Source of the DNA: Clostridia bacterium
GTDB lineage: Bacteria; Bacillota; Clostridia; TANB77; UBA1234
Assembly (NCBI GenBank): GCA_017462965.1
Contig: JAFTQC010000069.1
Coordinates: 4,277-68,276 of the forward strand
Direction: 5' to 3'
DNA: 64,000 bases
Shown: positions 4,165 to 59,768 of the stretch, one piece after another
Layout: every line of letters starts with the position of its first letter
Position numbering within the stretch: position 1 is the first letter of the stretch
Notes under the pieces: model-generated
What the model was told of the DNA's origin: nothing
What the model saw: the letters and a program-made list of their open reading frames with translations, nothing else
Database searches by the model: none
Made by a program: the position numbers and the translations under genes

Positions 4165-4179
4165 AATAAAAATCGATAT

Positions 4180-4243
4180 GGACAAGGGGACGGTTCTCTT
4201 GTCCATTTTTTTTCGTCCACGAGGGACGTCCGTTAAATGGACG
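4180..4243. repeat. GGGACGG-core palindromic elements: B-module hairpin ggacaaggggacggttctcttgtcc plus T-run (terminator of upstream ORF), then D-module cgtccacgagggacgtccgttaaatggacg
   Basis: Perfect inverted repeats read directly. The D-module recurs as an inverse copy at 46649-46680 with 1 mismatch. Confidence 0.85.
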
Positions 4244-4370
4244 ATTTTATGTAATCAAAAAATAAATCAGAGTTTCTAGCAGGATTTTTAAAAGTTTTGT
4301 AGTAATTATAAATTTAGTTGGGTAAAATATCCAACATTCATTACTAGAAATAGAAAGGACGTGCGTTTTA

Positions 4371-4788: not shown

Positions 4789-4856
4789 GGTCATCAAGAG
4801 GGACAGCCCTTTTTGATGAATTTCTTTCTCAAAAAGGGCTGTCCCTCTTGATGACC
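4789..4856. repeat. A-module palindromic element (ggtcatcaagagggacagccctttttga / tcaaaaagggctgtccctcttgatgacc)
   Basis: 28-bp arms that are exact reverse complements around a 12-nt loop. Confidence 0.9.
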
Positions 4857-9686: not shown

Positions 9687-10970
9687 ATGAAAAAATTATT
9701 TATAATGCTAACAATAAGCTTAATTATGACTATTGGGCTTGGAACAGTTAGTTTTGCAAAAGAAACTAAGCCAATTGAACTTATTGAGGTTTCTGGATTG
9801 GATACTCCATATTCAAAAGGTGAGATATTAGATACAACTGTTAATTTGACAAGAAGTTCATATTCATATTTTGAGGAGCTTAGTTGGTCAAAGACGGCTG
9901 AAGGTCTTCATAAGGTTGAAATAAGATTAAGAGCGCATTATCATGATTATCATTATGATGAAAATACGAAAGCAACTTTAAATGGTAATCCAGTGCATGA
10001 AATAAAAGTAGATGAAGATAATAAATATTATGTTACATTAACATATGTATTTCCAGAAGAAGAGGTTAATGCCAATTTATCTACTTCATCAACTTTGCTT
10101 CACACAATTACTGTAATGTATATGAAAAATGGAAGAATTTCTCCAAATCCAATAAGAGCTCCACATCGTAAAAACTTTACAGTTCAAATTATTCCTGACG
10201 AAGGATATGAAGTAAAGGATGTTGTTGTAGATGGCGAATCTGTTGGTGCTGTTACAGAATACACATTTAGAAGAGTTGAAACTACGCATAAAATAAAAGC
10301 GTATTTTAAGCCAATTGAGGGATATGTTCCATCGGAAGATGAAGAGGATGTTGAATCTGGAGATGCAGAAGTAGTAGAGCCAGACACAAAAGTGTTTGAA
10401 TTTGATGATGTAAAAGAAAATGACTGGTATTATGATGAAGTTCAATATGTATGCAATGCCGGAATATTTAACGGAACTTCAGAAACAACATTTGGACCAG
10501 AAGAAACTGCTACAAGAGAGCAATTAGTTACAGTATTATATAGATATGCAAAATCTAAGAATGTAGATGTAAGCGTAGGAGAAAATACAAATATTTTATC
10601 TTATGATGATGCATTTGATATTTCTGAATATGCAGTAGAAGCATTCCAATGGGCATGTGGAGCAGGAATTATAAATGGAACAACTGCTTCAACACTTGCG
10701 CCAAAAGAACTTGTTACAAGAGAGCAATTAGTTACAATACTATATAGATATGCTAAAAATGTAGGTGTAGACGTAAGCGTAGGAGAAGATACAAACATTT
10801 TATCTTATGATGATGCACTTAACGTTTCAGAATATGCAGTGGAAGCATTTCAGTGGGCATGCGGAAGTAAAGTAATAACAGGAAAAACTGCTTCAACACT
10901 TGCTCCACAGGAATTTGTAACAAGAGCAGAATACGCTACTATCGTTATGAGATTTGACGAGGCTAAATAG
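9687..10970 (+). CDS. S-layer homology (SLH) domain surface protein
   Basis: N-terminal signal peptide. Three C-terminal SLH repeats (DV..WYYDEVQYVCNAGI.NGT...F.P.E..TREQLVT.LYRYAK). Confidence 0.75.
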   Translation: MKKLFIMLTISLIMTIGLGTVSFAKETKPIELIEVSGLDTPYSKGEILDTTVNLTRSSYSYFEELSWSKTAEGLHKVEIRLRAHYHDYHYDENTKATLNGNPVHEIKVDEDNKYYVTLTYVFPEEEVNANLSTSSTLLHTITVMYMKNGRISPNPIRAPHRKNFTVQIIPDEGYEVKDVVVDGESVGAVTEYTFRRVETTHKIKAYFKPIEGYVPSEDEEDVESGDAEVVEPDTKVFEFDDVKENDWYYDEVQYVCNAGIFNGTSETTFGPEETATREQLVTVLYRYAKSKNVDVSVGENTNILSYDDAFDISEYAVEAFQWACGAGIINGTTASTLAPKELVTREQLVTILYRYAKNVGVDVSVGEDTNILSYDDALNVSEYAVEAFQWACGSKVITGKTASTLAPQEFVTRAEYATIVMRFDEAK

Positions 10971-10986
10971 TATATATTGATAAAAA

Positions 10987-11565
10987 ATGGAAATAATAAG
11001 TGTTATGATGACACTTATTATTTTTTTGTTTATAATTAGCTTCCTAATTATACTGTCTTTGGTTTATAAAATAAAAGCAAAAGCGCGAATAAATATTAAT
11101 GGTGGGAAAATCGATGTATCATTTGAAATAATGAATAAAAAATATAACAAATCAAAAGAATTAAATATTTATAATTTGTTTTTAGAAAAATTCTTAAAAA
11201 AAGAGGGTGCAAAAGACATAGATGTTCCTAAAAATCAATTAGATACGCTTTTTAAAGAAATTCGTGATGTTGCATCACTTGTAAAAGTAGAGACATTAAA
11301 CGCGTCTTTTATACTTGGAACGCCGTTTGTTGCATCGACGGTATTTTCTAATGTTATAGCTTCGACACTAATTCCAATAGCATATCAAAAACTATTTGAT
11401 GGTAGTGGAAAATTAATTTATAAAGTTGTTCCAGATTATAATGATTTTAAATTTAAAGGAAACGTGGAAATTTCTTTTTTTATAACGACATTCCAAATTT
11501 TATTAGTATATATTTGGCTAAAAAAGAAAAATAATAAGTATAAGAAAAAGGAGGAGAGCAGATGA
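10987..11565 (+). CDS. YtfI-like membrane protein (DUF2953-like)
   Basis: Hydrophobic N-terminus. Stop overlaps the ytfJ start by 4 nt (translationally coupled), as in the ytfI-ytfJ operon. Confidence 0.5.
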   Translation: MEIISVMMTLIIFLFIISFLIILSLVYKIKAKARININGGKIDVSFEIMNKKYNKSKELNIYNLFLEKFLKKEGAKDIDVPKNQLDTLFKEIRDVASLVKVETLNASFILGTPFVASTVFSNVIASTLIPIAYQKLFDGSGKLIYKVVPDYNDFKFKGNVEISFFITTFQILLVYIWLKKKNNKYKKKEESR

Positions 11566-12029
11566 ATAATCATCCAATAGAAGGTCTTATGAATACGGCC
11601 ATGAATAATTTAAGGGATATGATTGATGTCAACACTATTGTTGGTGAAGCGATTGAAACTATTGATGGAACGGTTATAATTCCAATATCAAGAGTAAGTT
11701 TTGGCTTTGCAGCAGGTGGAAGTGAATTTTTAGGGGAAGCAGTAGATAATTATAAAAAAGAGGGAATGGATGAAAACATAACATATCGTTTGCCGTTTGG
11801 TGGCGGAAGTGGAGCAGGAGTTAATATATCACCAGTTGGATTTATAATTGTCGGGGGAAATGAAGGAATGAGTTGTCCTAAATTTATTCCAGTAGATCAT
11901 TGCAATGCGCTTGATAAACTATTAGATTATGTTCCAAATATTTTAGAAAAAATAGCTCCATGTAATTCAAAGAAAGATTCGAAAGAATGTAATTGTGGTA
12001 GTGGAGAATGTCACAAAGAAGAAGAATAA
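11562..12029 (+). CDS. ytfJ: sporulation protein YtfJ (GerW family)
   Basis: MNNHPIEGLMNTAMNNLRDMIDVNTIVGEAIETIDGTVIIPISRVSFGFAAGGSE matches the YtfJ/GerW N-terminus. Bidirectional hairpin terminator at 12039-12063. Confidence 0.8.
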   Translation: MNNHPIEGLMNTAMNNLRDMIDVNTIVGEAIETIDGTVIIPISRVSFGFAAGGSEFLGEAVDNYKKEGMDENITYRLPFGGGSGAGVNISPVGFIIVGGNEGMSCPKFIPVDHCNALDKLLDYVPNILEKIAPCNSKKDSKECNCGSGECHKEEE

Positions 12030-12038
12030 AAAAGAAAA

Positions 12039-12063
12039 AACCTGGCATTTTAAATGTCAGGTT
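12039..12063. terminator. bidirectional terminator between ytfJ and the convergent acidic-repeat gene
   Basis: aacctggca...tgtcaggtt hairpin with an A-run upstream and a T-run downstream. Confidence 0.6.
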
Positions 12064-12070
12064 TTATGTA

Positions 12071-12439
12071 TTATTTTTTCTTTAATACGCTTACGATAGC
12101 TACGATAGCTACTACTATAACGATTGCTATAACAGCTGCTAAAACTGTACCGTTACCTTCTGTCTCTTCAGCGTCTGTTTCGTCGCCAGAAACTTCTCCT
12201 GAAACTTCACCAGAAACTTCTGTGCCTTCTGTTGTAGGCTCTTCTGTTTCATTTGAAACTTCACCAGAAACTTCTTCGTTTTCAACTACTTCTTCACCAG
12301 AAACTTCTGTTGTTCCTTCAAGAACTTCACCAGAAACAACTGTATCTGCAGCAGCTGTATCATCAGCTTCAGTAGCGAATACGCAAGAGATAGAGAACAT
12401 CATAACTAAAGAAAGTAACAATGCTATTTTCTTTGCCAT
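12071..12439 (-). CDS. small secreted/membrane-anchored acidic repeat protein (EVSGE repeats)
   Basis: Signal peptide MAKKIALLLSLVMMFSISCVFA, acidic EVSGE-type repeats, C-terminal TM helix plus KKK. Strong RBS (aggaggg) upstream. The overlapping + strand ORF starts inside the terminator hairpin and is rejected. Confidence 0.55.
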   Translation of the reverse strand: MAKKIALLLSLVMMFSISCVFATEADDTAAADTVVSGEVLEGTTEVSGEEVVENEEVSGEVSNETEEPTTEGTEVSGEVSGEVSGDETDAEETEGNGTVLAAVIAIVIVVAIVAIVSVLKKK

Positions 12440-12612
12440 ATTGAATCAGCCCTCCTATTAAAATTTGACAATTGTGTTTGAATAACTGTCGTGGTTATTA
12501 TATAATAATACATGTCCAAATGTCTACACTTAAAAGTAAAAAAAGTGAAGTTTCTTGTAATAATATGGAATACAAGGTAACATAATTAACAAATTTGCGA
12601 AAGGGTAATAAA

Positions 12613-13251
12613 ATGAGATTAAAAAAAGTAAAAAATGCAAAGGAAATTGTAGAAAATTCTGGATATTTTGTAGATGCTCCAGAAGAAAAAATTGGTAAAT
12701 GGAATGAAATTTTTGGAAATAATAATCCGATACATATAGAAATAGGAATGGGAAAAGGTAAATTCATAATAAATATGGCAAGGAAATATCCAAACATTAA
12801 TTTTATTGGAATTGAAAAATATGATAGCGTACTTGTGAAAGCAGTTAAACAGTTAGATGAGCTTGAAACAAAGCTTTCAAATTTAAAGCTTTTATTGTAT
12901 GATGCTGATAAAATTGAGGAAGTTTTTGATAAGGAAATTGAACAAATTTATTTGAATTTTTCTGATCCGTGGCCAAAAAGCAAACATGAAAAAAGAAGAC
13001 TTACAAGTCAAAATTTTCTAAAAAAATATGATAATTTATTTGTAGGTAAAAAGATAATTATTCAAAAAACAGATAATAGAACATTTTTTGATTTTTCCCT
13101 TCAAAGTATTGAAGAATATGGGTATACAATTGATGAAGTTACATATGACTTGTATTCGTTAAATGATGAAACTAATGTTCCTACAGAATATGAAGAGAAG
13201 TTTAATAGTAGAGGCGTGAAAATTAATAGATTGAAGGCTCATATAGATTAG
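12613..13251 (+). CDS. trmB: tRNA (guanine46-N7)-methyltransferase
   Basis: IEIGMGKGKFIINMA..NFIGIE..DPWPKSKHEKRRL motifs of TrmB. ATG at 12613 preferred over the upstream TTG. Confidence 0.85.
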   Translation: MRLKKVKNAKEIVENSGYFVDAPEEKIGKWNEIFGNNNPIHIEIGMGKGKFIINMARKYPNINFIGIEKYDSVLVKAVKQLDELETKLSNLKLLLYDADKIEEVFDKEIEQIYLNFSDPWPKSKHEKRRLTSQNFLKKYDNLFVGKKIIIQKTDNRTFFDFSLQSIEEYGYTIDEVTYDLYSLNDETNVPTEYEEKFNSRGVKINRLKAHID

Positions 13252-13274
13252 AATATTTTTTACAAAAGAAAGGA

Positions 13275-14555
13275 ATGATTTGTTTGGAGAATTTAAATCA
13301 AAAAACTCTCAAAATTATTGCAGGAGTAATAGCTTTTTTGATAGTCGCAATTTTAATATTTCTTGGAGTAACTGCGGAAAGACCTCCGAAAGAAGTTGAT
13401 GAAGGAATTGCGGAAATATTTAACAACAATGAAAAGATAGTACATCATAGTGGAGATATTTATTGTTATACGAATATTTTTAAGGATAACAAATGGACAA
13501 ATGTTTTGTTGAAGCTTCCAATTGAATTTGATGATTCGACGCCAAGAATGATTGTTCATGAATTTTCATCTATGGTAGAAAATATTAAGTTGAATTTTGA
13601 AAATAACAGACTTTTTTATATGTCTGGTGCGAGTACATATATGTATAACATAACACAAAATAGAATTGATAGGTTTTGTGAAGGTGAATTACAGTTTATG
13701 TGTGAGCCTAATTCCTTCGTGACGCTTACTGATGGTAATCTTTATAAATGCGAATATTATCCTGCAACTTATTTTACAAAAAATGTTACAAAGCTTGCGG
13801 ATGGTACTTTTAAGAGATATGACGAAGATGAAAATAGGGTGTACTATTCTACTTCAGCTGGTTCAAATTCACTTGTTGTTGCATTAGATAAGGAAACTTT
13901 AAATATTATTCTTATAGATAATTTTCCGACAAAAGATATGCAAATAGAAGATGTTTTGGTTACAGATAACTATGTATACGAATTGATAAAAAGTAATGAA
14001 GGACCTTTTGTGAAAAAAGTATCAAACAAATCAAAAAAGGAAAATGAGAAAATAGAATTTACGAAGTTGCCTATTAATGATGCAGAATATATCGAGTTTA
14101 TAGATTCAAAATACTCAAAAAAGTTAGAGCCTATGAAGAAAAAAGAGGACGACTCTTCAAGTGATGATTTGTATTTTTATGTGGGTGATTTAGAACTAGA
14201 TCCTAATGCTTATACGATTGGTTATATTGTAGCAAGTAAGGAGGCACATAAATATGATGAAGCGACAAATAAAGTTGCTTCATATGATGATAATACTTTT
14301 AATGAAACTTGGTTAGATAATTATTCATTGTTCCTTAATGGTGAAAATGTAGAATTGTATCACAACAACAAATATATAACTTCTGTTAAGACAAGCATAA
14401 CAGAGGATGTTAATTTGAAAATGAATAGTGTAAATATAATAGGAGATTATTTGTATTATGAATTTCAAATCTCTAATTCAACTAATACAGATACTGTTTT
14501 TGCTAGAACGATGAAAACAGGTGGAGTATCTCAAAGAATTAATATTCCAGAATAG
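13275..14555 (+). CDS. hypothetical membrane-anchored protein (426 aa)
   Basis: N-terminal TM segment. No motif recognised. Ends at the palindromic element 14570-14650. Confidence 0.5.
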   Translation: MICLENLNQKTLKIIAGVIAFLIVAILIFLGVTAERPPKEVDEGIAEIFNNNEKIVHHSGDIYCYTNIFKDNKWTNVLLKLPIEFDDSTPRMIVHEFSSMVENIKLNFENNRLFYMSGASTYMYNITQNRIDRFCEGELQFMCEPNSFVTLTDGNLYKCEYYPATYFTKNVTKLADGTFKRYDEDENRVYYSTSAGSNSLVVALDKETLNIILIDNFPTKDMQIEDVLVTDNYVYELIKSNEGPFVKKVSNKSKKENEKIEFTKLPINDAEYIEFIDSKYSKKLEPMKKKEDDSSSDDLYFYVGDLELDPNAYTIGYIVASKEAHKYDEATNKVASYDDNTFNETWLDNYSLFLNGENVELYHNNKYITSVKTSITEDVNLKMNSVNIIGDYLYYEFQISNSTNTDTVFARTMKTGGVSQRINIPE

Positions 14556-14569
14556 AAATTTGAAAAATT

Positions 14570-14650
14570 GGGACGGAGTCATCAACGGGGACAGCCCTTT
14601 TTGAGAGAGTGCTCTCTCAAAAAGGGTTGTCCCTGTTGATGACTCCGTCT
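14570..14650. repeat. A-module palindromic element (81 bp) serving as a bidirectional terminator between convergent genes
   Basis: gggacggagtcatcaacggggacagccctttttgagagag / ctctctcaaaaagggttgtccctgttgatgactccgtc arms. Confidence 0.9.
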
Positions 14651-14659
14651 TAATTTCCA

Positions 14660-16366
14660 TTATTTTATTTCAATACAATAAATTCTTTTTCCTCGAGTTC
14701 CGATAATAATTTTGTTATCATATATTGCTGGAGATCCTTCGATGTTTCCGCCGCCAGTGTTTAAAGTATATAATGTTTCACCTGAAAGCGGATCAATTAA
14801 AAGTAACTGTCCGATAGAATTTCCAAATATGACGTACGATTTGCCAGAATTCGAATATATCGCAACAGGTGAGCTCCAAGAATATTTTACTAAATCTTTT
14901 TCCCATATAACTGTTCCATTTGTTTTATCTAGTGCAACCATTTTCCCGTTGTAAAAGGAGGTTACTTTTGAAAAATTAAAGATTACCAAATTTGATATAT
15001 CATTTTTACCGATGACAGGTGAAGAGAGAACACCACCATTTACACTTGCGTCATATAGGCAATCGCAAGAATATTCCCATAAAACTTCGCCGGTAAGACC
15101 ATTTATTTTTCGAACTACGGCAGGTGACGTAGTTTTCCTTCTGTCAACTTCGCATGCTGCATAAAGCATAATAGTTCCATTTTCTTCTTCAAGGCCAAGT
15201 GTGGCGTCACAATCATCTTCCATTTGAAAATTCCAAATAGGAGTTAAGGTATTTAAATCTAGGCATTGAACGATTCCATTGTTGTTCATAAAATATCCAT
15301 AATTTTTATAGACAGCGAGTGCGTTTTCGATACCTCCGGCTTTGCCGTTGACAGTTGAACGGTATCTTGTAATATCAGGATTAATTGAAATCGTTCCATT
15401 TTCTTTGTCGTATGTCGTATTCAATTTAACAATATAAATTAAACCGTTTTCACCCGGTAACATTAATGTATCATTTTTTGAATCTATTATAGGATTGCCG
15501 TCAAATGCACCCCAGCCAAGATAAGCATATTTGTCACGACCGTTTATAAATAGCAATTCTTCACCAGTAATCAAACTAAAAATGTGATATCCCATTTGAA
15601 CTGATTCACCACTTACTTCGTTTATCCCTTGTCCAACATAAAGTAGAGGATATCCTCTAGGATCTATAGTAACACTTCCTTTAATAGAACTAGGAACAGC
15701 AATTGTGTCTCGTGTTGGTGCGCCAGTTTCTAAATCATAGAAATGAACTTTACTATCTAATGCACCATATATGACTTCTATAAAATTTTCCTTTTGTTTG
15801 AATTCGTCATACAAATTCATGTTTTTTCTTGTTTCATCATTCCATTTTATAATAGCAGGTTGTCCATTCCAGCCAACACCAGTCCAATTGTCAGTTTGTC
15901 CAATTGTGTTAGTCCAAATTTTTGATAATTTTTTCTCTGTAACATCTAATGAACCATAAAAGGCACTATCGCGATAGTTGTTTCCTCTAAAGGTTGTAAT
16001 ACCTTCGACTTGATTGTAAGTATCCGAACTATCTAGATATAAATTATTTGAATAAAGTGTGCCATTACTTGTTTGTATTTGATAAGTATGAGGAAGATCT
16101 GGAGCAACAACTACAGGAGGATCTTCAATAATATTATTATCATCGCCAGAGTTAGGTAACGAATTATCACCGGATATAATGCTTAAATCGCCACTTGATA
16201 TATCATTCTCAATGTCACCTGAACCATCACCAGAAGTAATCACAATATTAGAATTGTTTCCTTCATGTTTATTTTGAACAATTTTAACGTTAACTTCTTG
16301 AAGAATAATTAACGTCAAGAATGCAATAATTAAACAAATTAATATTTTCCAATTTTTATTATTCAT
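14660..16366 (-). CDS. PQQ-like beta-propeller repeat protein, membrane-anchored
   Basis: N-terminal TM. Repeated propeller-blade motifs (VIYGALDSKVHFYDLETG..., GTIVWEKDL..SSPVAI.., IIIGTRGKRIYCIEI). Confidence 0.65.
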   Translation of the reverse strand: MNNKNWKILICLIIAFLTLIILQEVNVKIVQNKHEGNNSNIVITSGDGSGDIENDISSGDLSIISGDNSLPNSGDDNNIIEDPPVVVAPDLPHTYQIQTSNGTLYSNNLYLDSSDTYNQVEGITTFRGNNYRDSAFYGSLDVTEKKLSKIWTNTIGQTDNWTGVGWNGQPAIIKWNDETRKNMNLYDEFKQKENFIEVIYGALDSKVHFYDLETGAPTRDTIAVPSSIKGSVTIDPRGYPLLYVGQGINEVSGESVQMGYHIFSLITGEELLFINGRDKYAYLGWGAFDGNPIIDSKNDTLMLPGENGLIYIVKLNTTYDKENGTISINPDITRYRSTVNGKAGGIENALAVYKNYGYFMNNNGIVQCLDLNTLTPIWNFQMEDDCDATLGLEEENGTIMLYAACEVDRRKTTSPAVVRKINGLTGEVLWEYSCDCLYDASVNGGVLSSPVIGKNDISNLVIFNFSKVTSFYNGKMVALDKTNGTVIWEKDLVKYSWSSPVAIYSNSGKSYVIFGNSIGQLLLIDPLSGETLYTLNTGGGNIEGSPAIYDNKIIIGTRGKRIYCIEIK

Positions 16367-16439
16367 AATTAAACCTCTTTAGTAATTTTGTACACAACTA
16401 ATAATACATAATTTGATAAAAAAAGACAAGAGCATTTCA

Positions 16440-16600
16440 GCAAGAGGGACGCCACTTTTTGAGAGAGCGTGCCATCAACGGGGACAGCCCTTTTTGATAA
16501 ATGTAAGAATTAATAGTAGTGCAAATTATTTTTACTTATTTATCAAAAAGGGCTGTCCCCGTTGATGGCACGCTCTCTCAAAAAGTGGCGTCCCTCTTGC
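16440..16600. repeat. nested 161-bp palindromic MITE-like element (A-module outer and inner arms around a 49-nt AT-rich core)
   Basis: Outer arms gcaagagggacgccactttttgagagagcgtgccatcaacggggacagccctttttgataaat and its reverse complement. An inverse copy lies at 25547-25712. Confidence 0.9.
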
Positions 16601-16634
16601 AATAAAAAAACCTCTCACCAAAAAAGGTGAGAGG
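16601..16634 (-). terminator. rho-independent terminator of the ABC exporter gene
   Basis: cctctcacc aaaaaa ggtgagagg hairpin preceded on the plus strand by aataaaaaaa. Confidence 0.75.
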
Positions 16635-16647
16635 CTGCTCATAAAGG

Positions 16648-18408
16648 TTATACCATGTTGACATGATAACTCATGTCGTTTTCGGAGTGTTCGAAGTGCA
16701 AGTGCATGGTTGCAACTTCATAGGCAATGTTCGTCTGATGCGTCGCGAAGAGTACGACCTTGTCAGTGCACATTTCTTTGATGAAGCGAAGAACCTGAAG
16801 ACCAATTTCATCGTTAAGGTTATTGGTTGCTTCATCGAACGCAACAATCTGAACGGTGTCGTCAAGATTCATCAGTGTGCGAGCGAGTGAGAGGCGCTGA
16901 ACCTGTCCGCTCGAATACTGATCGGTACCACTATTGTCCAGGAAAGCGAAGACATCATCGGTCTTTTCGCTGATTTCCTGATACAGATGCAGTCCACAGA
17001 GAATCTGGAGGAGCTTTTCGCGGTCATAATCAGCCTTGCCGAGCGTGATTTCTTTCAAGATAGAGTTGGAACCGAGCATAGTCTTGTCCTGATGAAGGAT
17101 AGACTTAGTGTTTCCTTCTTTTTCTTTCTCGATGTTCAATGCGAAACCATCAAAGTGAAGATTGCTAGTAAGCATCTTGATGAGAGTGCTTTTGCCAGAA
17201 CCTGTGGTTCCAGTGAGAACAGCAAAATCACCAGGCTTCATGCTGATAATGTCGCTTGAAATGAGTTCGAAAGGCTGGTTGCCGTTCGTTGACGCATAGG
17301 TGACACGGAATGCGGGCAGAGAGAGTCTCGACAGTCGAGTAACTTCGAGATCATCGTTTTCGGTTTGCTTTTCGTAAACCGCAAAGATGTTGTCAAAGTC
17401 ATTCTCATAAACCAAACGCTCTTCCTTAATTTCACGCCAGTTATCACCAATATAAATAAAACCGCTGATTCGACGAGTGAATTGAGAATAAATTGTGACC
17501 AACGAAATTGCGCTGACCAGAGTCTCAAGGTTCACATTCGCAAAACCAACTTCCCAAATCTTGAGGGCAAGAAGTGAGAGTGTGAAGAAGCTTGTAGCAA
17601 GGTTGCTGACCGTACGAATAAGATTGATGCGTCTTTGAACGGTTCGTTGCAACAGGAAGCTTTTTTTGCTTGCATCAACGTAGTTGTTGGTGATAAAGAG
17701 CGCATGCTCATTGCTTATGGGCTCAAGTAGCATGATGTTCTGTCGTGCTTCCTCAGTAATCATTCGAGCTTTTCTCTGCTGATTGCGATAAGTATTTCGC
17801 GTTTTCAGTCTGATGTTGCAGAAGAGCAACTCGAAGATAGAAGAAACGATGACCAGAATGATGAAGATGCCAGTGTGTTCAACTTCAAGAGTTGACACTG
17901 CCAAAAGACCAATGAACATAATAACGGCAGAAACAATGTCGATGCCGTTCCTGAGGAAAAACGTACGGATTTCCCAAGTGTTTGCGAGGAATTCGTGACA
18001 TGTCTTGAGAATCTTACTCGAAGGCATCTTCTCGTCGAAGCCTTGCAGTTCATTTCGGTGCTGGACTTTTCCCTTAACACGAAGCAGAACATCGGCTGCA
18101 TTTTTGGTCAGGAAAATGTCCTTGTGTTCTCTGAAGATATCTTCACGTTCTTCAACAAAGGTTCGAGTAAAGTTCTCGAGAGGGAACTTCACGTAGTGAA
18201 GCGAAATGAGCACCAGAGAAAGAACTACATGTCCTTCAATCATCGCATTCTTGCTAAACTGCAAGAGGAAGGAGCCGGCGTCCATCATAAGACCAAAAGC
18301 GAGATTGATCAGAGTCAGGATAATGAACTCCTTCAGAAGTTCACGCGGCATTTGGAGAAACGTGGAACGCTTATTCATAAAAAACCTCCAGTTGTGTGTC
18401 ATAACCAA
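16648..18408 (-). CDS. ABC exporter, fused permease/ATP-binding protein
   Basis: N-terminal TM domain plus C-terminal NBD. Walker A GTTGSGKST, signature SSGQVQRLSLAR, Walker B IVAFDEAT, H-loop FATHQ. Visibly GC-richer than flanks. Terminator 16601-16634. Confidence 0.8.
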   Translation of the reverse strand: MVMTHNWRFFMNKRSTFLQMPRELLKEFIILTLINLAFGLMMDAGSFLLQFSKNAMIEGHVVLSLVLISLHYVKFPLENFTRTFVEEREDIFREHKDIFLTKNAADVLLRVKGKVQHRNELQGFDEKMPSSKILKTCHEFLANTWEIRTFFLRNGIDIVSAVIMFIGLLAVSTLEVEHTGIFIILVIVSSIFELLFCNIRLKTRNTYRNQQRKARMITEEARQNIMLLEPISNEHALFITNNYVDASKKSFLLQRTVQRRINLIRTVSNLATSFFTLSLLALKIWEVGFANVNLETLVSAISLVTIYSQFTRRISGFIYIGDNWREIKEERLVYENDFDNIFAVYEKQTENDDLEVTRLSRLSLPAFRVTYASTNGNQPFELISSDIISMKPGDFAVLTGTTGSGKSTLIKMLTSNLHFDGFALNIEKEKEGNTKSILHQDKTMLGSNSILKEITLGKADYDREKLLQILCGLHLYQEISEKTDDVFAFLDNSGTDQYSSGQVQRLSLARTLMNLDDTVQIVAFDEATNNLNDEIGLQVLRFIKEMCTDKVVLFATHQTNIAYEVATMHLHFEHSENDMSYHVNMV

Positions 18409-18580
18409 TAGTGTAAATAAGTCGAGTGGTGAACAGAGAGACTATGGTTGTAATTACGTCGCTACATGCACATACTCCTTTCATTTTTCACAGTCAAAAA
18501 GACGACTGTTTATTTGGAAAACTATGACTTTTTAGTCGATAACATTATATCACACTTTTGACATTATGTAAATTCAAAAA

Positions 18581-18646
18581 GGACAAAGGGACGGGGTTTT
18601 TGTCCTTTTTTGGAAATTGGGACGGTTCCTTTTTCAAAAAATGGTC
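18581..18646. repeat. composite element: B-module (ggacaaagggacggggtttttgtcc) plus C-module arm (ggaaattgggacggttccttttt)
   Basis: Same modules recur at 21950-22046 and 39899-40033. Confidence 0.85.
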
Positions 18647-18667
18647 CTATCTATACGTGTAATCTGG

Positions 18668-18697
18668 TTGACAATAAAACGATATGGGTTGTATAAT
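18668..18697 (+). promoter_or_regulatory. sigma-A-like promoter of the Zn-ribbon protein gene
   Basis: TTGACA - 18 nt - TATAAT, then the gaggagg RBS. Confidence 0.55.
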
Positions 18698-18765
18698 TTT
18701 TTCGTTGCAAATCAGTGTGATGAGCATGGTTAGAATAAACTTTGCTAAGTAGAGGAGGAAGACGC

Positions 18766-19758
18766 ATGAACAAGGAAAGATGTGAACTTTGTAACCGTAT
18801 TTTGAATCCGGAGATTGCTCTTGGAGGAGCAGATTTTGCCAGATTTGGTCAGATTTGTCGGAAGTGTCTGGAAGACTTAAGAAGTAGGGATGAATATGCG
18901 TATGATGAACATGGGCATATGCTTACACCCGAAAAGAACAATTTTTCATTTTGGTTTCCTAAGGTTGAACATTGTGGGCTGAAAGTGCCAAAATCACTGA
19001 TATTCAACGTGCCTGAAGAAATTCAGAATCGTTTTTTCTTGGAAGGCGAAGATGATTACGAAGTCATTGATAATTGGCTTAAGGTGAGTGTACTTCCTGC
19101 TTTGAAAGAAGCGGATATGCATTTACTTTTTGTGAAGAATGCGACATTCAGTAATAAGTTTCTTGCGACGAGTTGTATGGCTACACAGCATACGCTTCTT
19201 GATGCGATTACTTCAATTAACTATGGAGCGTTGATGGTTGGCGCAGAAGGATTATCAGAATTTGTTGTGCGTGAACGCATTATGCATAATAGTCAAAGTA
19301 CACCGTGCATTTACCATGGCCTTCCTCTTAGGTCTGAATTCAGAGTTTTCTATGATTTCACGAAGCACAAGGTAATTTTTATAGAGAATTACTGGAATTA
19401 CGGCTATGTATTTCCGAATCTGCACGATGCTACAGACAAGATTGTTTTTGAGCACGAAAGAGAACGTCTTGAAAGAGAATTTGATAGCAGAAAGCAGGAA
19501 GTCTCTGAACTTGTCGCAAGTGCAATGCAGAATGTAGAGGGTTTCGAAGGTCCTTGGAGCGTAGATATTATGCTTGAAGGAAATACATATTATCTGATCG
19601 ATATGGCGCTTGCTGAAACGTCCGCGTATTGGACGAATAGACCTGGTTATGAACGAGTTCATGCGCGTGAACTCGAAGTACGAAACAGAAGGAGACAGCA
19701 GTTGAGACCTGCTGCTGTGACTAAGCTAGATCCAGCAATAGTTGAACTTCTTGAATAA
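18766..19758 (+). CDS. hypothetical protein with N-terminal CxxC...CxxC zinc-ribbon (331 aa)
   Basis: CELCNRI...CRKC at N-terminus. GC-richer than host. Sigma-A-like promoter TTGACA/TATAAT at 18668-18697, RBS gaggagg. Terminator hairpin 19774-19809. Confidence 0.55.
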   Translation: MNKERCELCNRILNPEIALGGADFARFGQICRKCLEDLRSRDEYAYDEHGHMLTPEKNNFSFWFPKVEHCGLKVPKSLIFNVPEEIQNRFFLEGEDDYEVIDNWLKVSVLPALKEADMHLLFVKNATFSNKFLATSCMATQHTLLDAITSINYGALMVGAEGLSEFVVRERIMHNSQSTPCIYHGLPLRSEFRVFYDFTKHKVIFIENYWNYGYVFPNLHDATDKIVFEHERERLEREFDSRKQEVSELVASAMQNVEGFEGPWSVDIMLEGNTYYLIDMALAETSAYWTNRPGYERVHARELEVRNRRRQQLRPAAVTKLDPAIVELLE

Positions 19759-19773
19759 TTTCACAAACTAAAT

Positions 19774-19809
19774 GGACAAGTGGGACGGAGACACTTGTCC
19801 ATTTTTTTT
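19774..19809 (+). repeat. B-module hairpin (ggacaagtgggacggagacacttgtcc) plus T-run, terminator of the Zn-ribbon protein gene
   Basis: 9-bp perfect stem with the GGGACGG loop core, followed by attttttt. Confidence 0.85.
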
Positions 19810-19852
19810 AAATGAAATATAATAATGGATATATTAAATTTTGGAGGCACAA

Positions 19853-39611: not shown

Positions 39612-39639
39612 ATTACAGTTTTTGGTGTTGATTACATAT

Positions 39640-39885
39640 TTAGTAGTTTGTTTGACCTCTTACAGGAATGAAAAGCCACCGGCTGAGAGCTTTTCAAAGA
39701 TAAACAAATAAATGAATTTCGGATGTAGGAGCCATGTTATGAAAATAACACGTGTTAAGAGCGTTAATCTTTTTCAAGTGTCGATTTGTGCAAGCACGAG
39801 TCGGAATTTGGGTGGTACCGCGATAAGCGCTAAAAATGTTTATTCGTCCCAAGCATGAGAGAAATCCCGTGCTTGGGATTTTTGT
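39640..39885 (+). promoter_or_regulatory. T-box riboswitch leader (Phe specifier) controlling pheST
   Basis: T-box sequence aatttgggtggtaccgcg at 39805-39822. Terminator hairpin 39847-39878 plus T-run. Stem-I-like UGAGA and a UUC(A) specifier candidate near 39690. Promoter TTGACT at 39582. Confidence 0.8.
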
Positions 39886-39898
39886 TGTCTCAAAAAAA

Positions 39899-40033
39899 GG
39901 ACAATGGACAGTTTTTTGGAAATTGGGACGGTTCCTTTTTCCAAATTTAATTAAAGGATTGCTAATTAAAATATATAGTTGTAAATTTGGAAAAAGGAAC
40001 CGTCCCAATTTCCAAAAAAACTAAAAAGGGTCC
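39899..40033. repeat. 135-bp composite palindromic element (31-bp perfect C-module stem) inserted between the T-box terminator and the pheS RBS
   Basis: ggaaattgggacggttcctttttccaaattt at 39918-39948 and its exact reverse complement at 39984-40014. Outer B-like half-sites ggacaatggacag / gggtcc. Confidence 0.9.
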
Positions 40034-40065
40034 TTTTTTCAAAATCAATTAAGGAGGAATTGTAG

Positions 40066-41121
40066 ATGCAAGAGAAAATTAATGGTTTGCTTGAAGAGCT
40101 TGCGAAGGCTTTTGCGGATGTTAAGACGATGCAAGAGCTAAATGATTTAAAGGTTCAGTATCAAGGTAAGAAAGGTATTATTACTGAGCTTAGTGCGGGT
40201 ATTAAAGATGTGCCTAATGAAGAAAAGAAAGAATATGGTATGCATGTTAATACTTTGAGAGTGGCTTTTAATGATGCGTATGATAAAAATAAGACAAGAT
40301 TAGAAGAAGAGCTTGTTAATAAGAAGCTTAAGGAGGAAACTATTGATATTTCGCTTCCTTCTGTTAAAAATATGAGAGGTTCTAAGCATCCTTTTAACAG
40401 AATTATCGAAGAAGTTGAAGATTTGTTCGTTTCTATGGGATATGATGTTGTTGATGGTCCTGAGCTTGAAGATGATGAGCATTGTTTCAGACTTTTGAAT
40501 TATACTGTTGGTCATCCTGCAAGAGATGCGCAAGATACTTTCTATATTGATGAAGAGTATTTGCTTCGTACACAAACTTCGTCTTCTCAATCAAGGGTAA
40601 TGCAAGCGAATACTGAAAAATCTCCAATTAGAGTTATTTGTCCTGGTAAGACTTATAGAAGAGATGATGATGCTACTCACTCTCATCAATTCGGTCAAGT
40701 TGAAGGATTAGTTATCGATAAAAATATTTCACTTGCTGATCTTAAGGGAACTCTTGAGATTTTCGCGAAGAAATTGTTGGGTGAAGAAACTAAAGTTCGT
40801 TTCAGACCAAGTTATTTCCCATTCACATCACCATCTTGTGAAGTTGATGTAACTTGCTTTAAATGTGGTGGTAAAGGTTGTCCACTTTGTAAGAAAACTG
40901 GTTGGATTGAGCTTTTAGGCGCTGGTATGGTTCATCCAAATGTATTAAAAATGGGTGGATATGATCCTGATGAATTTACTGGATTTGCTTTCGGTACAGG
41001 TCTTGATAGACTTGCGATGTTTAAATATGCAATTCCTGATATTAGATATATGTATGGAAATGACATCAGATTCTTAAGACAATTTGATAGAAAGGATGAA
41101 GAGTATGAAATTAAGTATTAA
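40066..41121 (+). CDS. pheS: phenylalanine--tRNA ligase alpha subunit
   Basis: Class II aaRS motifs (FRPSYFPFTSPS.., GAGMVHPNVL, GFAFGTGLDRLAM). Confidence 0.95.
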   Translation: MQEKINGLLEELAKAFADVKTMQELNDLKVQYQGKKGIITELSAGIKDVPNEEKKEYGMHVNTLRVAFNDAYDKNKTRLEEELVNKKLKEETIDISLPSVKNMRGSKHPFNRIIEEVEDLFVSMGYDVVDGPELEDDEHCFRLLNYTVGHPARDAQDTFYIDEEYLLRTQTSSSQSRVMQANTEKSPIRVICPGKTYRRDDDATHSHQFGQVEGLVIDKNISLADLKGTLEIFAKKLLGEETKVRFRPSYFPFTSPSCEVDVTCFKCGGKGCPLCKKTGWIELLGAGMVHPNVLKMGGYDPDEFTGFAFGTGLDRLAMFKYAIPDIRYMYGNDIRFLRQFDRKDEEYEIKY

Positions 41122-43471: not shown

Positions 43472-43473
43472 TA

Positions 43474-43530
43474 GCAAGAGGGACGCCCCTTTTTGTGAAA
43501 ATTTTTCACAAAAAGGGGCGTCCCTCTTGC
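43474..43530. repeat. 57-bp perfect A-variant palindrome (gcaagagggacgcccctttttgtgaaaa / ttttcacaaaaaggggcgtccctcttgc) immediately after pheT
   Basis: Exact reverse-complement arms. Acts as the pheT terminator structure. Confidence 0.9.
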
Positions 43531-43583
43531 TAAAAAAACCACCCCATACCCAATTGTATGAGGTGGAGAGATGGTTGTGTGTG

Positions 43584-44066
43584 TTACATGCTGAATTTGT
43601 CGTAGCGCCATACGCAAGCCCAGACGTCCTGTGGTGCTTCGAAAGTGCATTGTCCCAAAATGTCGATAGCTTGCTTGATGAAAGCCTCCTTGAAGACATC
43701 GCGCAGCTTCGGGTTCCAGAAAAAGAGATTCATGACGGGAGTCTCATACTGGATTCGAACTTTTTTGCACATGACCAAAAAGGAGGTTTGCAGCCACCGA
43801 ATAGAGACGTTGGTCAGTTCGGTCTCGTCAGGGAATTCCTTTTGGAGCGCGCTCAGAATGGTCTGGATGGAACGTTTTGCAACGGCCTGAGCAGCAGCTT
43901 CGATACGTTCTTGACGCATGAAGAACGTGACAAAGTTGAGCGTGTTTTGGGCACTGTCACAATAGGTGATGTCGGCATACCTTGATGCAATGTAGTCAAA
44001 GATTGCCACAGCTTTCGCCTGCACCTTTGTGAGTTCCAGTTCCTTTTTTACTTCATTTCTGTTCAT
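43584..44066 (-). CDS. GC-rich hypothetical protein (160 aa)
   Basis: Convergent with pheT. Own hairpin terminator about 43539-43568 preceded by an A-run on the plus strand. Confidence 0.5.
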   Translation of the reverse strand: MNRNEVKKELELTKVQAKAVAIFDYIASRYADITYCDSAQNTLNFVTFFMRQERIEAAAQAVAKRSIQTILSALQKEFPDETELTNVSIRWLQTSFLVMCKKVRIQYETPVMNLFFWNPKLRDVFKEAFIKQAIDILGQCTFEAPQDVWACVWRYDKFSM

Positions 44067-44440
44067 CTCTGATTTTCTCCTTCCTAAAATACGTGGTTTG
44101 CAGGTTTTGAATCGGTGTGCGTTCTTTTGTGTTTTAATCTATGTCCAAATTGCCAAACTTCCACTTAGGAAGAAATGACAAGAAAACTTGTATACATAAT
44201 ATTATAATATAAAACTTGAAAATGAGCAACATATGGGGGTTCAAGTTGAATATATTTGATTGAAAATAATATAAAAGGATGATATACTCGCATTTGTAAG
44301 TAAAGTCTATGATTTTGTGCGAATTGATGCAAATTATAGGCAAAATACAGAAAATGAAGGGAGGATAATTCCGAGATAAATTGTTACGCGACGTGAAGGC
44401 TGTATTCAAAGACGACATAACAATGAAAGGATGAGTGATC

Positions 44441-46648: not shown

Positions 46649-46680
46649 TCGTCCATTTAATGGACGTCCCTCGTGGACGA
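46649..46680. repeat. D-module element (tcgtccatttaatggacgtccctcgtggacga), inverse copy of 4214-4243
   Basis: Reverse complement of 4212-4243 with a single mismatch. Confidence 0.85.
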
Positions 46681-46777
46681 AAAGAATGTGAGAAAAATTT
46701 TTGAATTTGAGAGAACTTTTATATTTTCTTGTCGTCTAAATAAATATAGTTTATGATTTTGGTAGGGGGGAATGTAT

Positions 46778-52631: not shown

Positions 52632-52664
52632 TGTGGACAAATGGGACGGAGAAAATTGTCCACA
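52632..52664. repeat. B-module hairpin (tgtggacaaatgggacggagaaaattgtccaca) between two genes, no T-run
   Basis: 9-bp stem with GGGACGG in the loop, directly upstream of the arsC-like RBS. Confidence 0.8.
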
Positions 52665-57973: not shown

Positions 57974-58705
57974 ATGTCAAAAATAGAATTATTTAATGAT
58001 GACTGTATGAAAGCAATGCAAAGTATTCAGTCTGATTCTATAGATTTACTGTTAACAGATCCACCATATAATTTGGGGAATTTTATGAAAAATAGAGATA
58101 CAAATTTAAAAAAAATGCGTACCAATTTCTTTGGTGATGCAGGGTGGGATAATTTGGAATTTGAAGAATGGAAAAAAACAATTAATAGTTTTTTTAAAGA
58201 AGCATCGAGAGTGATGAAAATTGGTGGAGCAGCAATTGTATTTATGTCGGCCATAAAAGTTGAAACGGTAATTGAGATAGCAGAAAGTTATGGCTTTTAT
58301 TATAAAACAACAGGAATATGGCATAAGCTTAATCCAATGCCAAGAAATATGAATTTACATTTCGTAAATTCGACAGAATCATGGATTTATTTTATTTATA
58401 AAAAGAAAACAGGAACTTTTAACAATCAATCAAAACTTATACATGATTTTGTTGAAACTTCTGTAGTACCATTAAAAGAAAAAAAATTTGGAAAACATCC
58501 AACACAAAAACCAGAATGTTTAATGAATCATTTTATAGGATTACTTTCAAATGAAGGTGATGTTGTTTTAGATCCTTTTATGGGAAGTGGGACAACAGGT
58601 GTAGTTGCACAACAAATGAATAGAGATTTTATAGGTATAGAATTAGATAACGAATATTATGATATTGCAAAGAAAAGGATAGATGAATATGGAAACAAAA
58701 CCTAA
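57974..58705 (+). CDS. DNA methyltransferase, amino-MTase beta class (N6-adenine or N4-cytosine), R-M subunit M1
   Basis: Motif IV DPPYN near the N-terminus and motif I LDPFMGSGTTGV near the C-terminus (beta-class order). Confidence 0.8.
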   Translation: MSKIELFNDDCMKAMQSIQSDSIDLLLTDPPYNLGNFMKNRDTNLKKMRTNFFGDAGWDNLEFEEWKKTINSFFKEASRVMKIGGAAIVFMSAIKVETVIEIAESYGFYYKTTGIWHKLNPMPRNMNLHFVNSTESWIYFIYKKKTGTFNNQSKLIHDFVETSVVPLKEKKFGKHPTQKPECLMNHFIGLLSNEGDVVLDPFMGSGTTGVVAQQMNRDFIGIELDNEYYDIAKKRIDEYGNKT

Positions 58706-59768
58706 AGTTATTGACTTGTTTGCAGGAGTAGGTGGATTGTCATTAGGATTTGAAAATGCAGGGTTTAACGTGGTATTTGCAAATGAATATGACAGTGATA
58801 TTGCGAATGCGTATAAAGTAAATCATCGAACGACTGAAATGCTTATTGGGGATATAACTAAAATATCTATTAAAGATACTTTTGAAAAATATAAAGATAA
58901 TATAGATGTGATTATTGGTGGTCCTCCATGTCAAGGATTTTCACAAAAAGGAAAAAGATTATCAATTAATGATGAAAGAAACTTTTTATTTAAATATTAC
59001 TATGAAATTGTTAAGTTTGTACGACCAAAGTATTTTGTTATAGAAAATGTGCCCAACATACTTACTACATGCAACGGATATTTTAAGAAGCAAATTATAG
59101 AACTTTTTAATGAACAGGGGTATACGTTAAATATGGATGTCCTTAATGCTGAAAATTATGGAGTCCCACAATCGAGAAGAAGAGCTGTAATAATAGGAAA
59201 ATTAGGTAAAAATTCTGTAGCGTTGCCAGAACCTAATGAGAGAAGAGTATCTATCTGGGAAGCGATAAGCGATTTAGCATACTTGAATTCTGGTGAAGGC
59301 AGAGAAGAACAAGAGTATGTGAAAAATATAGAATCTAATTATCAGAAAATTATGCGAAATAATCAAAAAAAATTATATAATCACGTTGCAACTAAACATT
59401 CTGCTGATGCGTTAAAAAAATTAGAGTTGATTCCTCCAGAATGTGGAAAAGAATGCTTACCAAAAGAACTTTTAACTAAATCTATATATAGTGGTACTTG
59501 GACAAGAATGAATAAGGATGACGTATCGGTAACAATTACTACTAGATTTGATACTCCGTCATCTGGAAAATTTACTCATCCATTTTTGAATAGAGCGATT
59601 ACTGTTAGAGAAGCGGCAAGATTGCAATCATTTCCTGATAATTTTATTTTTTGTGGCTCGAAAACATCACAAATGAAACAAGTTGGTAATGCAGTTCCGC
59701 CTAAACTTGCACAAGCGGTTGCTGAATCAATTATGAAAGATATAGAGGGGGATAAGAAGAAAAAATGA
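58683..59768 (+). CDS. DNA (cytosine-5)-methyltransferase, R-M subunit M2
   Basis: Motif I DLFAGVGG, motif IV GGPPCQGFS, motif VI ENV, C-terminal QVGNAV. Overlaps the M1 stop. Confidence 0.9.
   Translation: MNMETKPKVIDLFAGVGGLSLGFENAGFNVVFANEYDSDIANAYKVNHRTTEMLIGDITKISIKDTFEKYKDNIDVIIGGPPCQGFSQKGKRLSINDERNFLFKYYYEIVKFVRPKYFVIENVPNILTTCNGYFKKQIIELFNEQGYTLNMDVLNAENYGVPQSRRRAVIIGKLGKNSVALPEPNERRVSIWEAISDLAYLNSGEGREEQEYVKNIESNYQKIMRNNQKKLYNHVATKHSADALKKLELIPPECGKECLPKELLTKSIYSGTWTRMNKDDVSVTITTRFDTPSSGKFTHPFLNRAITVREAARLQSFPDNFIFCGSKTSQMKQVGNAVPPKLAQAVAESIMKDIEGDKKKK

Follow-up and report, generated by a model that had tools for sequence, protein, structure and literature searches.

Two palindromic elements of about 160 bp were identified in a 64,000-nucleotide stretch of DNA from an uncultured Clostridia bacterium (contig JAFTQC010000069.1, positions 4,277 to 68,276; the whole of this stretch is referred to as the window, and positions are counted within it), one at 16440 to 16600 (copy 1) and the other at 25545 to 25711 (copy 2). 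Both are probably copies of a nonautonomous, noncoding mobile palindromic repeat whose family resembles the REPINs, hairpin-forming doublets of repetitive extragenic palindromic (REP) sequences, and the bacterial interspersed mosaic elements (BIMEs). We are confident of the broader statement that the elements are mobile selfish repeat DNA of the REP/REPIN kind. They look like recent acquisitions and look more like the REP/REPIN repeats of Proteobacteria than like a classical miniature inverted-repeat transposable element (MITE).

The left arm of copy 1 (16440 to 16502, plus strand) consists of an outer module (GCAAGAGGGACGCCACTTTTTGAGAGAG), the linker CGTGC, and an inner module (CATCAACGGGGACAGCCCTTTTTGATAAAT), while the right arm (16538 to 16600, minus strand) is its exact reverse complement (63/63). 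Between them lies a 35-nt AT-rich core at 16503 to 16537 on the plus strand (GTAAGAATTAATAGTAGTGCAAATTATTTTTACTT). Copy 2 is arranged in the same way, with a left arm at 25545 to 25610 (plus strand; outer module, linker GGAGAGACT, inner module), a 35-nt core at 25611 to 25645 (minus strand) inverse to that of copy 1, and a right arm at 25646 to 25711 (minus strand). By repeat search and direct count, the arms of copy 1 are 63 nt and 100% complementary and those of copy 2 are 66 nt and 98% (65/66) complementary, with a 35-nt spacer in each case. As the arms are palindromic, only the core can reveal orientation; the asymmetry of copy 1 is confined to the core, which sets the orientation of the element. 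The two cores are identical at 32 of 35 positions in the inverse orientation and at 6 of 35 in the direct one. An earlier reading made from the sequence alone (the sequence-only reading) had described two nested palindromes of about 160 bp as inverse copies of one element, with double-module arms and cores that are nearly reverse complements; all three descriptions are borne out, each arm being two tandem hairpin modules of about 30 nt. Its estimate of about 49 nt for the core was too long, the unpaired part being 35 nt.

A repeat search returned a 119-nt inverted match between the two copies with 89% identity, over which divergence is uneven: the inner modules are identical on alignment, the cores differ at the three positions mentioned, three positions also distinguish the outer modules, and the linkers are of unequal length. 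Wherever the arms of the two copies differ, the partner arm within the same copy carries the mirror-image change. Four exact occurrences of the 23-nt inner arm were counted in the window, and seven when up to three mismatches were allowed (0 in 100 shuffles); folding as single-stranded DNA gave −87.3 and −84.7 kcal/mol, with z values of about −23 against shuffles for both elements. No coding capacity was found; six-frame translations of the element, searched against a protein database for spurious open reading frames (ORFs) over other copies, gave nothing at E ≤ 0.001. Rfam likewise gave 0 matches to the window elements at the gathering threshold; its E-value mode returned only sub-threshold plant microRNA-precursor models, which are generic long hairpins and were dismissed as meaningless.

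Each arm unit is about 30 nt and able to fold alone, for example as CATCAAGAGGG-ACAG-CCCTTTTTGATG. The module is laid out as a variable 5′ foot, an A/G-rich tetranucleotide, an invariant GGGAC, R-S-CCC, a T-run, and a complementary 3′ foot. Modules are usually paired in inverted orientation (GGGAC, spacer, GTCCC), and such a doublet can fold up as a single long hairpin; copies 1 and 2 are a higher-order form, with two tandem modules per arm around the AT-rich core. Simple inverted doublets, tandem pairs, and nested palindromes all occur in the window, where a covariance model built from a 46-sequence module alignment found at least 23 modules at E < 0.01, most of the 23 matches having been in the training set. 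These matches lie in copy 1 at 16436 to 16466, 16471 to 16501, 16539 to 16569 (minus strand), and 16574 to 16604 (minus strand) and in copy 2 at 25579 to 25609, 25647 to 25677 (minus strand), and 25686 to 25716 (minus strand). Some units have lost their own folding, among them the outer-left module of copy 2, which has a foot from another module type.

Foot pairing was also scored without preselection, and 27 of the 162 distinct GGGAC contexts in all collected DNA formed eight or more of the nine foot pairs with the register fixed, compared with 0 to 3 for seven control pentamers in the same test. In the 46-sequence alignment, which was preselected for folding, GGGAC (columns 11 to 15) is the sole invariant block and the positions at or before the foot vary. 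In that alignment 84% of foot cells are paired (57% in shuffles), all nine foot pairs have changed on both sides, and the covariation score is 0.645, against 0.18 for shuffles and 0.11 to 0.26 for slid registers. Single modules fold with z values of −4 to −6.5, and GGGAC and GTCCC together number 49 occurrences, compared with 13 for GGGTC and GACCC. An invariant 5-nt apical motif over many feet and in distant organisms suggests recognition by a protein. The combination of invariant apex and free feet suggests that such a protein reads the apex, with cleavage or strand exchange at or next to GGGAC.

That the elements are mobile is suggested by comparison with a sister strain (locus L121), represented by a 210-kb contig with the same gene order, including a block of ABC, TrkH, and TrkA genes, and with a ppa protein in one 90%-identity cluster with that of the window. 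Both copies are absent from it: the spacer between the propeller and ABC genes is 113 nt there and 281 nt in the window, and that between the rlu and ppa genes is 134 nt there and 314 nt in the window. At site 1, L121 reads AAAGACAAGA followed directly by AAAACCTCTC, whereas the window has between these two sequences an inserted segment (16431 to 16606) made up of 8 nt (GCATTTCA), the 161-bp palindrome, and about 6 nt (AATAAA). This site is clean, with about 175 extra nucleotides and flanks that are otherwise nearly identical, the right edge being ambiguous by 1 to 2 nt inside an A-run. At site 2, L121 and two further sister loci (L122 and L124) read ATATAGCAAGA followed by AAATATATTTCC. The window reads ATATATCAAGA, then a segment absent from all three (25540 to 25716) that comprises TGAA, the palindrome with its foot ACACGAGGGAC...GTCCCTCTTGC, and TAG(TT), and then AAATATATTTCT; the edges are less certain than those of copy 1 because the flank has diverged.

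Alignment of filled and empty sites revealed no target-site duplication at either junction. The flanks ttgc and gcaa, which had been put forward as a candidate duplication, are inverted and part of the palindrome, and there is no direct repeat. The left junctions of both copies lie directly 3′ of CAAGA. On the other strand this sequence reads TC/TTG..., which places each junction (at the slash) 2 nt upstream of a −35 hexamer, TTGTCT for copy 1 and TTGATA for copy 2. The lack of a target duplication together with a junction 3′ of a short fixed sequence is in the style of IS200/IS605 and REP elements.

Strain variation extends well beyond these two sites. In 20 kb syntenic with L121, 12 to 13 modules were found in the window and 2 in L121, and relatives at about 80 to 84% ppa identity had 0 modules in 42 kb. 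At five further sites, other nested palindromes also vary from strain to strain. One locus (L129) has a nested palindrome of about 130 nt and a doublet where the window has other forms, and after uvrC (its positions 10884 to 11085) it has a nested palindrome of about 165 nt where the window is empty. Beyond the latter, 15 nt of the left host flank recur in inverted form (GAAGAYGAGAAAAAA and TTTTTTCTCGTCTTC), which hints at growth of palindromes by template switching. In another (L127), a doublet encloses a terminator. Together, these strain-specific palindromes indicate that turnover is fast and that nested forms are common in the lineage.

At site 2, older occupants could be traced. In the strain whose flank is closest to the window (L134/L135), a 95-nt simple doublet of another module type has the same left junction, CAAGA followed by TGAAACAAGAGGGACGTCCGTTAAATGTGTCA. 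Loci L136 to L141 carry a decayed version of this L134-type doublet and the more distant L100 a decayed homologue, and the site is empty in L121 and L098. In copy 2, the left outer module carries the foot TGAAACACGA, as in the resident GGGACGTCC-type doublet of L134, followed right after GGGAC by the body GGGACAGCCC; its right foot is of the TAGCAAGA type. A resident foot joined to another body indicates that copy 2 is a mosaic joined at GGGAC, which replaced or recombined with a resident doublet, and this agrees with the uneven divergence between the two copies. Copy 2 was no simple landing in virgin DNA, site 2 being a long-occupied hot spot.

To find related elements elsewhere, metagenomes were searched with a two-arm pattern, and 17 low-GC contigs (26 to 35% GC) with doublets were identified, four of them labeled human gut. 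These doublets are of the form CGCCCAA(G/T)AGGGACGCCCCTTTTTGGGCG followed by its inverse, for example. Their feet differ among contigs (CGCCC, TGTC, TTGTC, TGTCC, and GGGATT), each pairing with its own 3′ partner, and every doublet is oriented with GGGAC and GTCCC pointing toward each other. By crude ORF calls, 20 of 30 doublets lie between codirectional ORFs, 6 between convergent and 2 between divergent ORFs, and 2 inside called ORFs; one lies between groES and groEL. The bias toward codirectional and convergent spacers matches the placement described for REPs (PMC3733652).

The 23-nt inner arm had 0 exact matches in 185,579 representative genomes, 0 in JGI metagenomes, and none in other collected loci, and the 17-nt module core had only single chance-level matches among the matches listed for the same genomes. 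Viral contigs yielded one chance match for the module and none for the core, blastn searches of plasmid and phage collections yielded no match, and a string search of the literature for module sequences returned unrelated eukaryotic papers only. Pfam searches of the ORFs beside elements, and between two doublets in locus L118, identified only housekeeping genes or had no match.

Among known systems, the closest match is the REPIN/BIME type. REPINs and BIMEs are REP doublets that form hairpins and are mobilized by the REP-associated tyrosine transposase (RAYT, or TnpA-REP) (Bertels and Rainey, PMC3337134 and PMC3116915; Ton-Hoang et al., via PMC6006769). The elements in the window share with them the doublet architecture, the self-palindromic unit, the intergenic spread, and the strain variability. 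The unit is a short imperfect palindrome, and a long hairpin is formed by two inverted units with a variable spacer between them; the copies lie in intergenic DNA, for the most part between codirectional or convergent genes, and their content differs strongly between close strains; complex clusters and long palindromes occur, with no coding capacity and no target duplication. What is missing is the canonical tag, a conserved GT[AG]G tetranucleotide 0 to 2 nt 5′ of the hairpin foot (PMC6006769). GGGAC modules lack it, and their invariant motif is on the apical 5′ side while the feet vary freely. The elements differ further in that copies 1 and 2 have two tandem units per arm, hybrid units occur, the host belongs to an uncultured low-GC Clostridia lineage, and no module-flanked RAYT gene was found in about 250 kb of collected loci, by a weak search. 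No comparable Firmicutes family is listed in the REP/RAYT literature examined.

CGTC-tagged REPs are also small hairpin repeats, mostly head-to-head dimers with no associated transposase known (PMC3733652), and the reverse complement of GGGACG contains CGTC. The description by Di Nocera et al. (2013) gives these REPs an unpaired terminal tag, an 8- to 9-bp stem, a 4- to 5-nt loop, and a CCA tail, in phyla that do not include Firmicutes (PMC3733652). Here, in contrast, GACG/CGTC is inside the apical hairpin region and the modules have no CCA tail; moreover, the main module type of copies 1 and 2 has base A after GGGAC (GGGACAG). Insertion sequences (IS) of the IS200/IS605 family (IS608 and ISDra2) would share with the elements hairpin-dependent ends, the lack of a target-site duplication, insertion just 3′ of a specific short sequence, and precise excision, after which the site is “empty” again. 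However, the IS608/ISDra2 type carries tnpA, often with tnpB, and has end hairpins direct on one strand, whereas GGGAC elements have no gene, their ends are inverted and symmetric, and their target rule is drawn from two junctions. CRISPR repeats, attC sites, pC194-type nick sites, CsrA-binding GGA hairpins, and the BsmFI-type GGGAC restriction site were considered and set aside, as their known sequences do not match.

How a REPIN/BIME-like repeat of this kind might move can be outlined. The elements would travel as single-stranded hairpin DNA, acted on by an enzyme encoded elsewhere in the genome that breaks and rejoins the strand at the GGGAC apex or close to it. The likeliest enzyme type would be an HUH/Y1 nuclease, RAYT-like or IS200/IS605-like, because the known chemistry of this type yields ends that depend on hairpins, leaves no duplication, inserts next to a short fixed sequence, and excises precisely (for single-strand REP/RAYT background, see PMC3337134 and PMC6006769). 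This assignment is tentative, and we put it at somewhat less than an even chance. Nested and mosaic palindromes may arise by insertion at a preferred short target or into the center of a resident hairpin, or by recombination between modules.

Several observations weigh against the REPIN/BIME-like explanation. A Y1/HUH transposase or other candidate enzyme was not found in the approximately 250 kb of collected loci, although the search was a weak one (phmmer with an approximate query, and an HUH...Y regular expression). The GT[AG]G tag that canonical REPs carry at the foot is missing from the modules, whose conserved motif is apical instead, and the nested element is known in two copies only among the representative genomes, JGI metagenomes, and collected loci scanned. 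The CAAGA target rests on two junctions, and that of site 2 is shared with older occupants and may have been inherited. The uneven divergence of the copies is better explained by recombination or assembly in steps than by a single clean transposition of the entire unit, and the inverted 15-nt flank copy in L129 points to template switching during replication in at least some cases.

Work on REP/REPIN-type repeats has been confined almost entirely to Proteobacteria and a few other phyla, and the elements described here would represent a clear family from uncultured gut Clostridia that looks active, with the unusual signature of an invariant apical GGGAC, freely varying but covarying feet, and nested and hybrid forms. 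Their consequences include broken metagenome assemblies and false N-terminal extensions in gene calls. Lying against promoters, in a T-box leader, and in operon spacers, they are a source of strain-level regulatory variation and could be used to tell strains apart. Should the enzyme responsible for their movement be found, it could add a new specificity to the hairpin-specific single-strand DNA nucleases or recombinases.

A different enzyme has also been considered. Low-GC gut Clostridia could have an undescribed system of hairpin-tip recombination that acts on the GGGAC-apex hairpins through an enzyme other than a canonical RAYT, although we regard this as rather unlikely. Such an enzyme would cut at the apical GGGAC of single-stranded hairpins and join modules to each other and to targets of the CAAGA type. 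Newly arriving doublets would thereby end up in the center of resident hairpins, giving a palindrome within a palindrome, with feet and bodies reassorted as in copy 2. If true, REP-like mobile DNA would gain a new mechanistic class, with recognition inverted relative to REP/RAYT, that is, a conserved apex and free foot rather than a conserved foot tag and free loop.

It is unlikely, too, that the palindromes grow and spread with no dedicated transposase, by template switching at fork hairpins or cruciforms, by gene conversion through microhomology at GGGAC and the T-run, and by intrahairpin repair that keeps the arms identical, yet template switching with conversion remains a serious rival. 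The mirroring of every arm difference within each copy and the symmetry of the arms point that way, as do the joint at GGGAC in the mosaic copy 2 and the nested palindrome of L129 with its inverted 15-nt copy of host flank; CGTC-type REPs are, moreover, reported to lack a dedicated transposase (PMC3733652). Copy 1, however, is a clean 175-nt addition at an otherwise near-identical site, and its core is the same as that of a locus 9 kb away, so that a long-range copying step is needed. The apical motif, invariant over many feet and distant organisms, also suggests protein recognition.

A classical MITE, that is, an internally deleted derivative of a DDE-type IS whose terminal inverted repeats (TIRs) are bound by the IS transposase and which moves by cut-and-paste with target-site duplication, is an improbable source of the two copies. 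Bacterial MITEs with long inverted ends include Correia/NEMIS in Neisseria, RUP/BOX in Streptococcus pneumoniae, ERIC/IRU, and bcr1 in Bacillus cereus. Like copies 1 and 2, the members of these families are 100 to 200 bp, noncoding, intergenic, and strain variable, have inverted ends, and can alter nearby promoters or transcripts; they typically have defined TIRs and target duplications (e.g., TA for Correia). The small size, long inverted ends, AT-rich noncoding core, opposite orientation of the two copies, and absence from the sister strain all accord with a MITE. The label MITE-like given by the sequence-only reading holds to this extent, as the element is a small mobile noncoding repeat missing from a close sister strain. 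It does not extend to the REP-doublet architecture, and classical MITE membership fails on target duplication, since neither junction has a direct duplication and ttgc/gcaa is inverted within the palindrome. The supposed TIRs are tandem self-folding modules that are also found alone, in tandem, and in doublets with many feet, and no parent IS or transposase with such ends was seen in the window, collected loci, plasmids, or phages. The MITE families named above are not known to be built from reassorting self-folding subunits with a 5-nt invariant apex.

We give as little credence to the possibility that the elements are host-selected cis-acting sequences, kept for their function as promoter-upstream modulators, insulators, terminators between transcription units, or mRNA stabilizers. 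Both copies do end 2 nt upstream of a −35 hexamer, copy 1 has a terminator on one side and the following promoter on the other, family members occupy spacers within operons as well as convergent gene ends, and GGGACGG occurs in the loops of terminator-like hairpins; REPs are known to be co-opted for such roles (PMC3733652). In sister strains, however, the same genes lack the elements, the same site holds different elements in different strains, and core orientation does not follow the adjacent left-hand gene in any fixed way. Both copies also lie outside predicted transcripts, which makes an RNA role unlikely for them, and a purely regulatory role for the two copies is unlikely.

An assembly artefact, in the form of chimeric foldback joins in metagenome data, is exceedingly improbable. 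Some contigs do break inside or beside elements (L002 and L097), but de Bruijn assemblers can be expected to break at perfect palindromes. The identical sequence was found in independent assemblies (L001, L002, and L096), in full length and with both flanks in an independent ENA assembly (L001/L096), and an NCBI metagenome-assembled genome of the same strain also has the flanking proteins.

The genes next to copy 1 encode a beta-propeller protein with a PQQ_2 Pfam domain (14660 to 16366, minus strand) and a protein with an ABC_tran Pfam domain (16648 to 18408, minus strand). Copy 1 is placed between an intrinsic-terminator-like hairpin of the ABC gene (16609 to 16636, minus strand), which adjoins it and is kept in the sister strain, and a promoter-like site of the propeller gene (TTGTCT-17-TATTAT, 16401 to 16429, minus strand), and it was correctly located by the sequence-only reading between the propeller gene start and the ABC terminator. 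The block of ABC, TrkH, and TrkA genes (16648 to 22100; GC content, 0.39 to 0.41) is present in sister strains and absent between the propeller and “Gate” genes in more distant relatives (L098 and L100). TrkH is split into two ORFs (19841 to 20374 and 20322 to 21230) in the window and in L121/L134.

Copy 2 lies between an rluD-like pseudouridine synthase gene (PseudoU_synth_2; true coding region 24648 to 25499, minus strand, 283 amino acids) and the inorganic pyrophosphatase gene ppa (25814 to 26350, plus strand; MBQ8300161.1). It is bordered by the promoter-like sites of both, TTGATA-17-TATAAT (25509 to 25537, minus strand; 11/12) for the former and TGGACA-18-TAAAAT (25738 to 25767, plus strand) for ppa, the latter being conserved in relatives and outside the element. 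The description of copy 2 as filling a divergent promoter region is right in that promoter-like sites flank it on both sides, but the site was not empty DNA, having long been occupied by doublets. A mechanical ORF call (24648 to 25586) gains 29 codons (MMSLSLSQKGLSLVFHLDIFDNLLYNYVI) by reading into copy 2; this extension had been called spurious, and the gene is indeed called at 283 amino acids in the independent assembly and in sister strains. No promoter inside the core was found in a promoter scan of both element regions. The position against the −35 boxes could alter promoter strength. Effects on neighboring genes, through displaced upstream promoter DNA, a possible cruciform, or mRNA hairpins from copies in operons and leaders, are probably by-products and not the reason for the existence of the elements. 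Three sister loci (L124, L134, and L136) carry a three-gene cassette (VanW, AMP-binding, PP-binding) between two pseudouridine synthase genes, of which only fragments remain in L121 and none in the window at the corresponding site (24615 to 24648).

Other modules in the window take several forms. A simple doublet of the same module type as copies 1 and 2 (4789 to 4856; 28-nt perfect arms, 12-nt spacer) lies between spoVG and the next gene, at a position where a sister strain has a different doublet. At convergent gene ends, a compound palindrome (14565 to 14656) contains an inner doublet of the same type (14578 to 14643) inside an outer GGGACGGAGTC/GACTCCGTC hairpin. Two tandem GGGACGG modules of second module types (18578 to 18660, plus strand) add 83 nt that are missing from L121 and lie 7 nt upstream of a TTGACA box, and downstream of trkA a rearranged doublet with an extra module (21947 to 22041) is found where L121/L122 have a simpler doublet. 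Hairpins with only GGGAC(G/A)(G/C) in common, on the apical 5′ side, were identified at 4177 to 4244, 18578 to 18639, 19772 to 19802, 21947 to 22041, 39912 to 40019, 46649 to 46686, and 52633 to 52663. Three terminator-like hairpins (4177 to 4207, 19772 to 19802, and 52633 to 52663) have GGGACGG in the loop, the first of them followed by a T-run; either terminators are provided by the repeat family, or existing terminators were drawn into it.

A nested palindrome of about 165 nt and of another module type (39880 to 40050; perfect 38-nt arms at 39912 to 39949 and 39982 to 40019) is located between a T-box terminator and the ribosome-binding site of pheS, is absent from the sister strain L127, and by its position must be carried in the leader transcript. 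The T-box leader itself (39619 to 39854), which precedes pheS (40066 to 41121), scored 75.6 bits, under the Rfam gathering score of 93. Directly after pheT, a simple doublet of the GCAAGAGGGACGCCCC type (43472 to 43532; 30-nt perfect arms) lies at the edge of a segment absent from L127. This GC-rich segment of about 700 bp (43535 to 44200) contains a 160-amino-acid ORF with no Pfam match (43584 to 44066, minus strand), and its left boundary is formed by the doublet together with a terminator-like hairpin.

Within ORFs of the window, a 204-nt tandem duplication (76% identity) and 33-nt repeats were seen at 10434 to 10841 and 12186 to 12338, one of the ORFs encoding an S-layer-homology protein. 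A low-GC (0.25 to 0.30) defense island at 57974 to 63273 (and at 11105 to 16567 of locus L133, past the window end) encodes an N6_N4 methyltransferase, a C5 DNA methylase, a 594-amino-acid ORF, and McrB-like and McrC proteins, and a phage-type integrase lies about 4 kb beyond the window end.

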